IMG/VR virus record: IMGVR_UViG_3300021197_001787
Location: 130,232-194,231 of that record
Direction: 5' to 3' (one strand)
DNA length: 64,000 nucleotides
From: a virus
Each line of letters starts with the position of its first letter. Positions within the stretch are counted from its first letter, which is position 1. The notes below the pieces were generated by a model, which worked only from the letters and a program-made list of their open reading frames with translations, made no database searches and had not been told where the DNA came from. The translations under genes were made by a program, and so were the position numbers. Positions 15,957 through 20,620 of the stretch are shown one piece after another.

Positions 15957-15985
15957 ATTATATCCCGCCGGGGGCCATGTGTCAA
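15957..15985 (-). promoter_or_regulatory. consensus sigma70 promoter
   Basis: TTGACA (15985-15980) N17 TATAAT (15962-15957). Confidence 0.85.
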
Positions 15986-15988
15986 GTA

Positions 15989-17116
15989 TTATTTAGTAGT
16001 TTCTTCTTCATCATAGAAGTCAGCAGCGGTACCTTGCCGCTTGTCAAACTTCTGAATCACTTCGCTCTCCATAAGCTCAAGTACCTTGGCTCTGAACTCA
16101 TCATCGGTCTTAACAAGCTCAGTCCACTTTGATGGCTGGAACTTCTTAGAATAATCTCCAGATGTCAACGTGTACCATGAACCTGCCGATTGCATGTAAT
16201 TTGAGCTTTTAATTGCGTCAAACCACGATTCTTCATCTTGGATTCCAATGTCTTGAGTTCCCCACAAGATCCTGAATGTGCAGTTCCTGCCTTCAGTCCC
16301 AAAACGAGACTTTTCAAGCTTCACCTTGACCTCGGAACCAATCTTGAACCCCTTATCGTCCAATACTGCTGCTGCCTTAGACTTACGACCGGTTAGCCAA
16401 ATCCTTAACGAGTACGAGTAGTGCATCGCCTTACCGCCGGGAGTGATATACGGGGTTGTCATTGCTATCTGCCGGGCCATGGGGCCATGGGGGATATTTG
16501 TCTTTAATTGATTAAGTACAATGAAAGTCGCCCTCTGATCGGCAATAGGAATGACCAGCTTAGACATACCTTTGGCCAAGATTCGCGCTTTAGTGGCCAC
16601 AGTAGACTGTGGATTAAAGTCACCCTCAACGTCAGAGACCGAAGGCGTAAACGCCAACGAATCCCAAATAAACACCAATTGGTCGTCTGCTGCACCAAGG
16701 AGTTCTTCAATGGTTTCCAAAACAAATTCAACTGAAGATGCTTGAATGTACATTAAGTTTTCCAAGTCACATCCTGCACGATTTAGAAAGTCGGGGTCAA
16801 TTGCTGACTCCGAGTCAAAATAAACCACAAGCTTGCCTTGTTTCTGGGCATTCGCTGCAATTTGAGCAGCCATATAAGATTTGCCAGTTGATTGAAGACC
16901 AGCAATCTCGGTAATTTTTCCAACGGGAACACCAGCTAGCTGACCCTTACAAATGATAGAGTCAAGCCATCTAGAGCCTGTTGGAATCCACTCCTTGACA
17001 GAAGTGGGATTGTCGGTGGTAAGATCGTGTGCCACCTCACGGCCGGCTTTTTTATTTACCAGCTTCATAAGATCATGCATAGATACACGACCTGCTTTAG
17101 TTTTGGCTTTTGCCAT
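15989..17116 (-). CDS. recA: RecA/UvsX recombinase
   Basis: IPTGSRWLD, GKITEIAGLQSTGKS, YFDSE, WDSLA, LNQLK, TPGGKA. Confidence 0.95.
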   Translation of the reverse strand: MAKAKTKAGRVSMHDLMKLVNKKAGREVAHDLTTDNPTSVKEWIPTGSRWLDSIICKGQLAGVPVGKITEIAGLQSTGKSYMAAQIAANAQKQGKLVVYFDSESAIDPDFLNRAGCDLENLMYIQASSVEFVLETIEELLGAADDQLVFIWDSLAFTPSVSDVEGDFNPQSTVATKARILAKGMSKLVIPIADQRATFIVLNQLKTNIPHGPMARQIAMTTPYITPGGKAMHYSYSLRIWLTGRKSKAAAVLDDKGFKIGSEVKVKLEKSRFGTEGRNCTFRILWGTQDIGIQDEESWFDAIKSSNYMQSAGSWYTLTSGDYSKKFQPSKWTELVKTDDEFRAKVLELMESEVIQKFDKRQGTAADFYDEEETTK

Positions 17117-18357
17117 TATTCCTCCTTGAGTTGTTTGCTCTGTTTGAAAAACTTATTTTTTTGGTCATTCCACGAATACGCATGATCAGAGTCGCCGCAG
17201 TCTCTAAGTGCCATTGGTAGCACAACTTTGTCGATAATCGGAAGGTCCCAATCAATAGTTTTTTCGTTTAGGTTCCACTTTGTAAATTTTTGAAGCATAG
17301 TCTTGATCTCTTCATTACGCGATTCAATCTTTCTTAGACTGGAGCTTCCCTCTACGATGAGGTGAACTTTCACGTTATCAACCTTAGAAGCGCCGGTGTG
17401 AAATGGCTCAGCCAACTCACGGAATATGTTTCTTTCAAAAGTCTTCCATCGTGTTTGAAGTTGGTGGATTTTCTTGTTGTTTGGATCTCTCATAGACCAG
17501 ACCTCGGGGTCCCAATCGTATTGAATAAAGTGCTTCTTAAAACATTTTTTCAAATCCGCATCGCTGTATTCTTTAATTGGTTGGCCATGTTCTTGAGAAA
17601 AAGCACTGTTATAGATGAGTGTTTGTTTAGATGCATCCCTAAAACTAAGAGGTTTGTTGGACAACATCCACTTGTCAAACCACGTACGTCTAAAACCCTC
17701 TTTATCATCTTCTTCGCGCTTAATATAAGCAGAGCGGATCTCGCGCTCATACTTAGTAACCGATGAGGTGCCCTTTAAGTCAACATTGGTAATCTCTTCC
17801 CAAGCATCGTGGACTTGTTTAGCAAGGTCTTCCATTGAGTCTGTATCTTTGTCTTGTTTTGTCTCTGTGTTGCCCATAGAGGCGATTTTCAAAAGAATGT
17901 TTTGTTGTATATCTTCTGAGGTGTTGCCTTGGCGAATTATTAGAGCCTTGCCAAAATAATTATTTTCACATTCTCTTTTTCCATAGCCGCGGTGATTACC
18001 GACGCCTATATAGAGGAATTGCCCTATCTCAACCATTACGCAAGCGTAGTCAAGCGTCTCACCGTCATCAAATCTTGTAGTATAATTTTCACGCTTCTCT
18101 TTATTAAGGCCGTTTCTGCGTGATTGGGCCTTTTTCTGAAGATTTGAACTAGGAGGTGCGAAGGGTGCATCCTTATAGTTAAACCGATTGTAAAACTCTG
18201 CTTCTAGATTGTGTTCGTCGACGAAGTCGGAGATTTCACGATAGCACGGATCTACTGAGTTAATCCCAGCAAAAGTTGTTTCAAATATGTCTTTTCCGAC
18301 ATGTGCGGTACCGAATTGAGTTTCAGTTGTTTCAAATAGTGTTCTTACACTTCCCAT
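17116..18357 (-). CDS. hypothetical protein, possible ParB/Srx-like N-terminus
   Basis: LYIGVGNHRGYG resembles ParB-like GxHR motif; stop overlaps recA ATG. Confidence 0.45.
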   Translation of the reverse strand: MGSVRTLFETTETQFGTAHVGKDIFETTFAGINSVDPCYREISDFVDEHNLEAEFYNRFNYKDAPFAPPSSNLQKKAQSRRNGLNKEKRENYTTRFDDGETLDYACVMVEIGQFLYIGVGNHRGYGKRECENNYFGKALIIRQGNTSEDIQQNILLKIASMGNTETKQDKDTDSMEDLAKQVHDAWEEITNVDLKGTSSVTKYEREIRSAYIKREEDDKEGFRRTWFDKWMLSNKPLSFRDASKQTLIYNSAFSQEHGQPIKEYSDADLKKCFKKHFIQYDWDPEVWSMRDPNNKKIHQLQTRWKTFERNIFRELAEPFHTGASKVDNVKVHLIVEGSSSLRKIESRNEEIKTMLQKFTKWNLNEKTIDWDLPIIDKVVLPMALRDCGDSDHAYSWNDQKNKFFKQSKQLKEE

Positions 18358-18382: not shown

Positions 18383-18412
18383 TGGCACCCATTAACCGGG
18401 GTGCCAGCGGCT
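18383..18412 (-). promoter_or_regulatory. structured RNA element copy C (H-type pseudoknot or terminator)
   Basis: AGCCG-C-TGGCACCC-CGGTT-AAT-GGGTGCCA then TTTTT. Confidence 0.65.
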
Positions 18413-18417
18413 TTTTG

Positions 18418-18528
18418 TTACTCTGCTGCTGTATCTGCAGAGCTGGCGGTATCAGCCGCTGTGTCTTCATCCTTATCCCCACAACCCATGAATAGGGTCG
18501 CAGCAAGGACTGGTAGAACGAGTCTCAT
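18418..18528 (-). CDS. 36-aa small lipoprotein
   Basis: Not in ORF track; SD TAAGGAG; MRLVLPVLAATLFMG-CGDKDEDTAADTASSADTAAE, lipobox-like FMGC. Confidence 0.8.
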   Translation of the reverse strand: MRLVLPVLAATLFMGCGDKDEDTAADTASSADTAAE

Positions 18529-18547
18529 TTTCTCTCCTTAAAATAGC

Positions 18548-18576
18548 GGCAGACTTTTTACCGGTCTGCCAGCGGC
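18548..18576 (-). promoter_or_regulatory. structured RNA element copy B
   Basis: GCCG-CT-GGCAGAC-CGGT-AAAAA-GTCTGCC. Confidence 0.65.
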
Positions 18577-18585
18577 TGTTTGTCA

Positions 18586-18858
18586 CTACTCAGTTGTAGT
18601 TGTTTCGGTGGTAGTTGTTGTATCACCTGTCGTTTCAGTGGTTGTTCCACCTTCAGTAGTATCACCACTCGTTGTTTCGGTCGTGGTGGTGGAGGAAACT
18701 TCAATAGAATTTACAGTCTCCTCCATGGTGGTGTTGTCCGACACCGTTGTTGGCTCAAGAGTACATGTTCCGTATGCTGTGGCTACCACAAGGGCGCCTC
18801 CAACAAAACTAACTTGTACCTTCCATTTAGCCCATGCGGACTTCATCCAATCTAACAT
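18586..18858 (-). CDS. membrane-anchored Thr-rich protein
   Basis: SD AAGGAG; hydrophobic VSFVGGALVVATAYG then TTET/GDTT low-complexity tail. Confidence 0.8.
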   Translation of the reverse strand: MLDWMKSAWAKWKVQVSFVGGALVVATAYGTCTLEPTTVSDNTTMEETVNSIEVSSTTTTETTSGDTTEGGTTTETTGDTTTTTETTTTE

Positions 18859-18889
18859 AATATATCTCCTTGTATGTTATTGAAAAGGG

Positions 18890-18920
18890 GCGCCCTATTA
18901 TAACCGGGGCGCTAACGGTT
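18890..18920 (-). promoter_or_regulatory. structured RNA element copy A
   Basis: AACCG-TTA-GCGCCC-CGGTT-ATAATA-GGGCGC then CCCTTTT. Confidence 0.65.
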
Positions 18921-18923
18921 GAG

Positions 18924-19697
18924 TTAACCGGCCATTAGCTCATCAAAGGCCTTGTCAACATCGTTGGCTTCACTCTTTTTACCATATGATTCAGTTTGAC
19001 GTGAGCGGCCCTCAGCGGACTTATCACTAGACAACTGCTCATCTAAAATGGCATCAACTTGCTCAGGCGTTAAACGCTCAAATAAGCTGTCAAAATCGGG
19101 CATATTTTCTAGAAGCCCAGGGATTGCTTCAGCGTCACTCAAAAGGGGACTTGTGTTACGACGCATCTTCAAATTAGTTTGTGGATACGCGCCGGGACGA
19201 GTTGGCTTCGTATAAGTAAGAGTGATATCGGTTCCCTCAACAGAATCGGTGATATCACCATATTCTGGATCAAGAATATAACCCAAAAGCAACTCGTACG
19301 CAGTCTTGCCATAGCCATAGACCTTGACGCCTTCCTCTTCACGACCGCGAACCACAACCGGTGAGAAATAACGTTGACGCACAAAAAGTGATTTAGCCAA
19401 CTTCTTGCTCTCCTCATCGTTCTTCTCGGTGCCCTCACGCCACAAAGATGACGCGAAATCGCATACTGGGCAGCGTTCACCGAAGTTGCGCTTCGGACAA
19501 AGCACACCGCCCTTATGATCTCCCACATTATAGTGGAAGTACATTTCCTTCAACGGATCACCATCTGATGTTGGTACGATCCGAATATCTTGGTCACCTT
19601 CATCTGGCTTAAACCAGTGTGAAGTACCATTATCTCTAGTTCCCTCACCACGCAATGTGGCAAGCTTTTGTTTCATTAGTTCCATGTTAATAGACAT
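18924..19697 (-). CDS. ssb: gp32-like single-stranded DNA-binding protein
   Basis: Start moved to ATG 19697 (SD AAGGAG); WFKP, IRIVP, FHY, CPKRNFGERCPVC Zn site, YGDITD, acidic tail. Confidence 0.88.
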   Translation of the reverse strand: MSINMELMKQKLATLRGEGTRDNGTSHWFKPDEGDQDIRIVPTSDGDPLKEMYFHYNVGDHKGGVLCPKRNFGERCPVCDFASSLWREGTEKNDEESKKLAKSLFVRQRYFSPVVVRGREEEGVKVYGYGKTAYELLLGYILDPEYGDITDSVEGTDITLTYTKPTRPGAYPQTNLKMRRNTSPLLSDAEAIPGLLENMPDFDSLFERLTPEQVDAILDEQLSSDKSAEGRSRQTESYGKKSEANDVDKAFDELMAG

Positions 19698-19750
19698 TAC
19701 TTTTTTCTCCTTTTGTTTTGATAAAGTATACTGAGCTTTCCTCAGCATCT

Positions 19751-19779
19751 AATGTATTACTCTTGAGCTAGCTTGTCAA
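19751..19779 (-). promoter_or_regulatory. sigma70-like promoter for ssb
   Basis: TTGACA (19779-19774) N17 TACATT (19756-19751). Confidence 0.6.
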
Positions 19780-20620
19780 GAGTTTTTTGTTGTATTACGT
19801 TGGTATGGGCAACGCAAAACCCAAAGTCTGTTTCAAAGGGTGACTCATAGATTGCATAGGATACATTTTTAAATGCATTCCTAGGCTTATCTTTAAGATG
19901 CCCAATGATCTTTTTATGTAAATCTCCGTCCTTTTCCAGTTTTTCAGTTGATATGCAGATATAATAACATACATCGCGAGAGTTGTCAAGTTCATAATAC
20001 CAATTTTCTTTAAGATTGTATGGATCAATACGACCAAGCGCACGGATCCGCTGTATATCCGAAGTTGATTCTAAATTGCCGATAATCGGATTTGTATGAT
20101 CAAACAAATTCTTATAATGCACACAATAATAGATAGTTTTGTTAATTGTATCAAAATACTTTTTGATTGGCACAGAGCCAATAGATTGCTCTAATGTTGG
20201 ATTGCTAAATACAGTAAATGAATTAAACAGGCCTGAACGAGTGTACTCTTGTAAAATGCCAAAAATTGCTCTTTCTTGAAGCTTAGTGGTTCCGAGTAAT
20301 AAGTCAGTATCTGGCTCAATGTAATAAATATCCATTTTTTTGTTTCTCAAATACTGTAGGATCGCGAGTGTTGCATTCGCCGTGCGGCCAGAGCCACACA
20401 CAAATACTTGAACGTGATCGTTTATTGAAGAAAAGAATTTTGTAAGGTCAGGAATACTGCTTTCATAGTCTTCCAATTTTTCTTGATACTTAATTTTACG
20501 CTTGTATTTCGTATTACGAGTTACGTTATCAGAGAGAATATACGTATCGTATTCTTTATTATCTGTAAAGCAGTTGACCACGTTTTCGCCGGCTGTACCA
20601 ATACCAACCAAAGAAATCAT
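19757..20620 (-). CDS. divergent tubulin/FtsZ-fold protein
   Basis: MISLVGIGTAGENVVNCF (T1-like), FVCGSGRTAN (degenerate T4 loop), IYYIEPD, FSNPTLE...INKTI. Confidence 0.6.
   Translation of the reverse strand: MISLVGIGTAGENVVNCFTDNKEYDTYILSDNVTRNTKYKRKIKYQEKLEDYESSIPDLTKFFSSINDHVQVFVCGSGRTANATLAILQYLRNKKMDIYYIEPDTDLLLGTTKLQERAIFGILQEYTRSGLFNSFTVFSNPTLEQSIGSVPIKKYFDTINKTIYYCVHYKNLFDHTNPIIGNLESTSDIQRIRALGRIDPYNLKENWYYELDNSRDVCYYICISTEKLEKDGDLHKKIIGHLKDKPRNAFKNVSYAIYESPFETDFGFCVAHTNVIQQKTLDKLAQE

Follow-up and report, generated by a model that had tools for sequence, protein, structure and literature searches.

Conserved H-type pseudoknots at successive gene ends behind a gp32-family SSB gene of an uncultured marine phage: candidate 3'-end modules and cassette joints

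Pseudoknots adjoining a gp32-family gene are known from the T-even phages. In the operator of T4 gene 32, a pseudoknot of about 28 nt precedes a stretch of unstructured RNA that exceeds 40 nt, carries several UUAAA/UAAA sequences and includes the gene 32 RBS (PMC535899). A second described system are the promoter-early stem-loops (PeSLs) of T4-type phages, in which a terminator is combined with an early promoter (PMC2839356, PMC4122927). Intrinsic terminators and attenuators, for example T7 T-phi, are a third; they carry a G+C-rich stem and a U-run just past the stop codon. Here, we compare with these systems three elements that lie behind the SSB gene of an uncultured marine phage.

The window, i.e. 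the whole 64-kb stretch of DNA that was analysed (64,000 nt), is the end of a virus record of 194,231 bp (one contig, 40.5% G+C, complete by CheckV). Among cultured phages no relative was found by DNA similarity, and the best SSB match is 31% identical. Compared with T4-type phages the phage is not T4-like; it has a family A polymerase and SPO1-like SSB relatives. All genes near the elements are located on the minus strand (Table 1). Since a search of the SSB protein against PDB sequences gave no match, its putative Zn site rests on a Cys-x9-Cys-x2-Cys pattern with an upstream His, plus the Pfam match. The 90-aa small ORF behind the SSB gene is hydrophobic in its N-terminal part and rich in Thr and Glu in its tail; homologues occupy the same position in most relatives and are missing from others. 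It is followed by a lipoprotein-like ORF of 36 aa. Homologues sharing its N-terminus occur in many relatives, in some of them directly 3' of the SSB element. The 413-aa gene behind the last element had no family match in Pfam or PHROG, and no relative of it was found. The UvsX/RecA-like recombinase gene is the conserved right-hand anchor of this variable interval and follows the last element in many relatives.

Table 1. Coordinates of the elements, neighbouring genes and SSB control signals in the window
Feature	Position	Strand	Details
Element A	18920-18890	-	S1a 18920-18916; L1 18915-18913; S2a 18912-18907; S1b 18906-18902; L3 18901-18896; S2b 18895-18890
Element B	18576-18548	-	S1a 18576-18573; L1 18572-18571; S2a 18570-18564; S1b 18563-18560; L3 18559-18555; S2b 18554-18548
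Element C	18412-18383	-	S1a 18412-18408; L1 18407-18406; S2a 18405-18399; S1b 18398-18394; L3 18393-18391; S2b 18390-18384; possible eighth S2 pair 18406/18383
gp32-family SSB gene	18924..19697 (longest ORF 18924-19748)	-	Pfam gp32 E = 1.5e-16; PHROG SSB E = 1.7e-27
90-aa small ORF, cassette 1 (between A and B)	18586..18858	-	ORF list
36-aa lipoprotein-like ORF, cassette 2 (between B and C)	18418..18528	-	ORF list
413-aa gene behind element C	17116..18357	-	Stop overlaps UvsX/RecA start
UvsX/RecA-like recombinase gene	15989..17116	-	Pfam RecA E = 2.6e-35; PHROG UvsX-like E = 1.2e-61
SSB control region	19728..19783	-	Sigma70-like promoter, inverted repeat, 5' hairpin, then A-rich leader
SSB sigma70-like promoter	-35 19779-19774; -10 19756-19751	-	
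Inverted repeat over SSB -35	19783-19777 with 19765-19759	-	Compensating
8-bp hairpin, 5' end of SSB mRNA	19748-19728	-	Covarying

A sequence-only reading of this DNA had described the layout S1a-L1-S2a-S1b-L3-S2b after three consecutive stop codons, and this layout was found at all three places on the minus strand. Element A, after the SSB stop, has an S1 of four supported pairs (a fifth is possible), an L1 of 3 nt, an S2 of 6 bp and an L3 of 6 nt. Element B, after the 90-aa ORF, has an S1 of 4 bp, an L1 of 2 nt, an S2 of 7 bp and an L3 of 5 nt, all A. For element C, after the 36-aa ORF, S1 comprises 4-5 bp, S2 7-8 bp and L3 3-4 nt. The elements are 29-31 nt in size, and the stop codons (18924, 18586 and 18418) are located 3-9 nt 5' of them. 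From the end of the element to the next ATG we measured 31, 19 and 25 nt (ATGs 18858, 18528 and 18357), in agreement with the 19-31 nt given before. Downstream of element A, CCC is followed by four U. An R-C dinucleotide follows element B, and after it a U-rich run extends up to the RBS of the 36-aa gene. Element C is joined by five U without a gap and scores as a canonical terminator in a terminator scan. The number of bases between the S2 stem and the U-run is 3 for A, 2 for B and 0 for C. No promoter adjoining A, B or C was found by a promoter scan. By a crude energy estimate, calculated from stacking energies and a fixed pseudoknot penalty with the value used in pknotsRG/pKiss, the knot lies 1-2.5 kcal/mol below the S2 hairpin alone. 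S2 could also be extended in a way that competes with S1.

The likeness to the gene 32 operator is considerable. In T4, T2 and RB69, too, an H-type knot of about 28 nt has a very short L1 and an S2 of about 7 bp (PMC535899, PMC3014915), a gp32-family gene adjoins, and an A/U-rich stretch with the RBS comes next. On these grounds the elements had been read as SSB-sensing translational operators: the SSB would nucleate on the pseudoknot, spread over the A/U-rich RBS and repress the gene that follows, as in the autoregulation of T4 gene 32. The T4-like geometry of the knot, the A/U-rich stretch with its SD and a start codon 19-31 nt away all fit this proposal. However, the T4 knot is located 5' of gene 32 and controls gene 32, whereas the elements described here are located 3' of the SSB gene. 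Moreover, the spacers of 19-31 nt contain at most one UUAAA (one behind C, none behind A or B), while T4 requires more than 40 nt and several repeats. The leader of the SSB gene is itself a different structure. This control region is conserved across relatives, with double compensatory changes in 7 of the 15 predicted pairs, five of these seven being in the 5' hairpin, and an A-rich unstructured leader extends from there to the SD (19710-19707) and the start at 19697. The upstream ATG at 19748 falls within the 5' hairpin, alignments with relatives begin at residues 11-18, and GGAG is found 9 nt 5' of the ATG at 19697, which makes 19697 the most likely true start of the SSB and a protein of 257 aa probable. 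If the SSB regulates its own synthesis, its own leader is the place to look. The region 19728-19783 is thus the real candidate for T4-like autoregulation or for mRNA stabilization.

The generic layout occurs at chance level. A loose scan for it yielded about 750 hits in the 194-kb genome compared to about 600 in shuffled sequences, and the layout alone is therefore no evidence. When a CCG...CGG core and a G+C-rich S2 were required, three good copies were obtained in 194 kb, namely A, B and C, and all of them sit within 540 nt behind the SSB gene. A covariance model, as suggested in the sequence-only reading, was seeded from 21 copies of other contigs only, and S2 was the sole structure supplied. 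This model detected C at E = 1.6e-9, B at 1.8e-7 and A at 0.004, and the rest of the genome was without a match. Searches against Rfam 15, pseudoknot riboswitches included, gave no overlap with A, B or C at E up to 10, and in ten other loci nothing reached the Rfam gathering score. No paper on the core sequence was found in the literature searched; the IMG/VR catalogue of candidate structured RNAs (PMC10690425) possibly includes the hairpin.

For the SSB clade, pairs were counted in 84 distinct copies aligned with the model. Six of the seven S2 pairs covary, so that the earlier observation of changing S2 sequences with pairing kept extends well beyond the window. At the fourth pair of S1 we counted GU in 50 copies, GC in 15, AU and CG in four each, UA and UG in one each and no pairing in seven. 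As S1 had been left out of the model, this count was not fitted to the model. In other phages this pair is mostly C-G, and U-A, G-U, G-C and A-U occur as well. With both sets pooled, 149 of 177 distinct copies pair at the fourth position, compared to 80 ± 6 with shuffled partners (maximum 105 in 5000 shuffles); slid controls gave 59 and 94. The pooled set holds 61 G·U and five A·C, and this excess of G·U over A·C indicates that the sense strand is the one that folds. The three core pairs of S1 (CCG/CGG) are invariant, also in a position-based set of SSB relatives, and this invariance is in part imposed by the search pattern. In the absence of variation, covariation offers no proof that these three pairs form; the core may serve as a recognition sequence, either in addition to a helix or in place of one. 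An S1 of five pairs had been proposed for A and C. Four of these pairs hold up, while the fifth pairs at chance level across the family. The conservation of S1 in homologues thus consists of an invariant core and a covarying fourth pair. L3 is 57-67% A across the family and mostly ends in AAA, AUA or AAU, in line with the A/U-rich loop noticed in the window. The R-C after S2b is conserved, and the C-U linker is invariant while S2 varies freely. Together, an H-type pseudoknot with a short S1, an S2 of about 7 bp and a very short L1 is backed by covariation in about 180 distinct homologues, and by this comparative evidence the three elements of the window are confirmed as real, conserved pseudoknots.

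A search with the SSB protein identified 80 loci in viral contigs (75-100% identity). An element of the same layout is present 3' of the SSB stop in every one of these loci that reaches past the stop. By motif scan the 80 loci contain 156 copies, and every one is located on the SSB strand and downstream of the SSB, at offsets from +3 to about +2800 from its stop; none was found upstream. The elements are, furthermore, not confined to this clade. The 22-base core of element B, composed of 15 and 7 bases with a variable loop between them, was found exactly in at least 119 viral-contig stretches and in 55 bacterial-genome stretches from several phyla; by an unsystematic look at their flanks, some of the bacterial matches appear prophage-like. 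Among the matches listed were 117 new viral loci, 69 of which have no homologue of the window's SSB within about 5 kb. These loci range from 46 to 68% in G+C content, and no gp32-type SSB was found within ±5 kb of the core in those unrelated contigs. The elements are therefore members of a large family for which neither Rfam 15 nor the literature searched has an entry.

In unrelated phages the module separates the major head and the tail tubular genes, follows a minor tail gene, or lies 5' of DNA polymerase, helicase and primase genes. This distribution bears directly on the operator proposal. The gene 32 operator adjoins gene 32, while the elements described here also occur where no gp32 gene was found nearby, and the recurrence of the same core behind capsid genes and before polymerase, helicase and primase genes speaks against a function linked to a gp32-type protein. 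Promoters or tRNA genes follow some of the copies, and sister lineages have plain terminators instead. In favour of the proposal, the element stands directly between SSB and UvsX in the simplest relatives, and it also follows the gene of an unrelated SSB family (L093), with a RecE-like exonuclease gene next. Taken together with the position 3' of the SSB gene and the different SSB leader, these findings speak against SSB-sensing operators, which we regard as improbable. The alternatives that had been mentioned alongside, a terminator family or the boundaries of inserted cassettes, fit the evidence better.

The surroundings of the element are those of a gene end. A G+C-rich hairpin lies directly 3' of the stop codon on the coding strand. 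A U-run, defined as at least five T in 8 nt and at most 12 nt from S2b, follows 60 of 83 distinct copies of the SSB clade and 50 of 94 copies elsewhere, compared to 0-6 in control windows. It is missing altogether in about one third of the copies from other phages. Instead of an RBS, some relatives have a TTGACA promoter or a tRNA gene after the U-run; the hexamer TTGAC(A/T) is present within 45 nt in 6 of 83 distinct copies and at none of the window's elements. In T7-like contigs the module is found between the major head and tail tubular genes. This site corresponds to that of T-phi in T7, which lies behind the capsid gene.

Further support comes from a sister SSB clade (45% identity, 80 loci) with 64 distinct post-stop sequences. 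A related but distinct pseudoknot with compensatory S1 changes is present in 50 of these. Plain hairpins with UUCG or GNRA tetraloops take its place in 11, six of them with a clear U-run; two of the remaining sequences have no hairpin and one has a long-loop hairpin without S1. The presence of tetraloop terminators at the same site indicates that knot and ordinary terminator are interchangeable there. The pseudoknot of the sister clade (L259-L338, at most 100 nt past the SSB stop) has an L1 of 5 nt and a different S2, and a single unpaired base separates its stems.

Elements and intrinsic terminators have in common the G+C-rich stem just past a stop codon, in most copies with a U-run behind it at a varying distance, the position after SSB and capsid genes, and the interchangeability with tetraloop terminators. 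They differ in that the loop of the elements is 8-14 nt long and pairs with upstream bases, in the R-C before the U-run, in the lack of a U-run in one third of the copies in other phages, and in the arrangement of three elements in series before an essential recombinase gene. The conserved R-C that intervenes between stem and U-run in A, in B and in the majority of relatives speaks against a terminator, as does the pseudoknot itself, which a terminator would not obviously need.

Weighing these findings, we consider it on balance probable that the elements are leaky, pseudoknot-locked terminator or 3'-end modules, which also serve as recombination joints of gene cassettes in the manner of PeSLs. 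Each element would be the 3'-end module of the preceding gene. The loop of the S2 hairpin, 8-11 nt in length (8-14 across families), would be tied to the upstream CCG by S1 to form a compact H-type pseudoknot, and a U-rich run would usually come next. Most likely, such a module would act as a leaky intrinsic terminator or attenuator and at the same time as a barrier to 3' exonucleases, and its effect would be to separate the abundant SSB message from what lies downstream. The conserved structure, its position, the U-run, the breakpoint within element C (see below) and the occurrence of plain terminators at the equivalent position are observations, whereas termination, stabilization and the reason for a pseudoknotted loop are what we infer.

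A promoter scan revealed no good promoter from the SSB promoter (19779) to 15985, past UvsX. As UvsX is thus located behind three elements, these would have to be leaky, antiterminated or mainly stabilizers. At 15957-15985 on the minus strand there is a perfect TTGACA-17-TATAAT promoter, which begins 4 nt past the UvsX stop. Between this stop and the promoter no terminator-like hairpin is present.

A pure boundary of RNA processing and stability has no difficulty with three terminators before UvsX. Here, the knot would block 3' exonucleases after endonuclease cuts in the A/U-rich spacer, RNA polymerase would not be stopped, and each cistron would obtain its own half-life. The copies elsewhere without a U-run, about one third, agree with this, a compact A-rich L3 suits a triplex-stabilized knot, and the module is found in very different phages with presumably different hosts. 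However, the U-run is strongly enriched and sister lineages have canonical terminators in this place, and we judge a boundary without any effect on RNA polymerase to be rather unlikely.

The short distance to the next gene could also point to translation. Pseudoknots can bind ribosomal protein S1 and serve standby translation (PMC7708055), and the knot together with a pyrimidine-rich tract might recruit S1 and the 30S subunit before the RBS. In both data sets the next start codon lies a median of 24-25 nt past S2b, and some downstream genes are without a visible SD (L107 group). Yet compact phage genomes give short distances anyway, and a standby site is impossible for those copies that precede a promoter, a tRNA gene or a spacer of 60-130 nt. 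An enhancer of this kind therefore appears very improbable.

Invariance of the CCG/CGG core, the C-U linker and the R-C, with an S2 that is free to change, could reflect a binding site. The knot would then be a regulated switch, bound by a conserved factor or a small ligand (an antiterminator, a nuclease or a riboswitch-like sensor). Phage contigs of 46-68% G+C retain the 22-base core, as do bacteria of several phyla, and the competition between the extended S2 and S1 offers an alternative state. Against such a switch stand the lack of any Rfam match, pseudoknot riboswitches included, at E up to 10, the lack of a common neighbour gene that might encode a partner, and the contribution of the search pattern to the invariance of the core. 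We regard it as quite improbable. A broader proposal, which we put forward only tentatively, is that of an autonomous, horizontally spreading RNA module of a new class. Its invariant core (CCG/CGG, C-U linker, R-C) would be read by a conserved factor, which might be RNA polymerase, ribosomal protein S1 or a nuclease, and the module would serve many unrelated phages for operon punctuation as well as cassette exchange.

The second part of the preferred reading, the cassette joint, is based on the plasticity of the SSB-UvsX interval. This interval is hyperplastic: the simplest relatives consist of SSB, element and UvsX, others have up to six inserted genes (0-6 by relative), and the small inserts each end in a copy. 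In two contigs with a 100% identical SSB (L001 and L003), homology to the window stops at 18392 within element C and returns at about 17137, before UvsX. Element C is thus the left breakpoint of a gene replacement. In place of the 413-aa gene, these two contigs carry unrelated genes of 404 or 425 aa, an extra element and a 345-aa gene.

Repeated at the end of each small gene between SSB and UvsX, the module would provide a short homology for cassette exchange, and with its length of about 30 nt it would allow gain, loss and replacement of cassettes. In this respect the elements resemble the PeSLs, which likewise are short, conserved, terminator-like stem-loops, recur at the edges of the small accessory genes of hyperplastic regions and are found at breakpoints of insertion, deletion and replacement between close relatives. 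The differences are threefold. An early promoter is part of the PeSL, whereas promoters are seldom found beside the elements; the hairpin loop of the elements is locked in a pseudoknot; and their 22-base core is common to unrelated phage groups.

Replication or recombination genes often adjoin the element, and DNA tolerates G·T pairs as RNA tolerates G·U. A structure in single-stranded DNA, such as a priming or loading signal on SSB-coated DNA, was considered for this reason. The element is, however, found only between genes and only on the coding strand, it has the U/T-run at its 3' side and a position between stop codon and RBS, sister lineages have terminators at the same site, and it is also located between capsid and tail genes. 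A function in single-stranded DNA is accordingly the least probable of the readings, with a very small chance of being correct. A stimulator of read-through or frameshifting was ruled out by the distance from stop codon to element, which ranges from 2 to 42 nt. An integron attC site, a CRISPR repeat, a tRNA-like or RNase P mimic and an operator in double-stranded DNA were likewise rejected, since the compensatory changes and the excess of G·U point to a fold of the sense strand and no defining sequence feature of any of these was seen.

If the module is a working terminator or 3'-end insulator, it would be a compact, portable and host-independent gene-boundary signal common to very different phages. 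It would then aid operon annotation in uncultured phages, explain the movement of accessory genes between them, and offer a simple test case for a pseudoknot in termination or RNA protection. The analysis also corrects the attractive analogy to T4 gene 32 and points to the SSB leader as the candidate operator.

Some groups of copies have conserved sequence beyond the element. In eight podovirus-like contigs (L096, L111, L116, L120, L123, L141, L165 and L192) a conserved ATCTG-containing motif was observed 20-35 nt after the element. It follows the U-run, and the element of these contigs separates the major head and the tail tubular genes. We take this motif to recall the sequence-specific (class II) pause/termination signal of T7 RNA polymerase. 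In loci from Victivallis and other Lentisphaerae (L200, L207, L215, L227, L232 and L241) a conserved flank of about 26 nt precedes the element; this may mark the 3' end of either a prophage gene or a longer conserved RNA. The Bradyrhizobium loci (L205, L208, L214, L219 and others) have a short-looped core within a longer conserved G+C-rich sequence that occurs in many species. These matches look like one inherited locus, which may be unrelated to the phage module.
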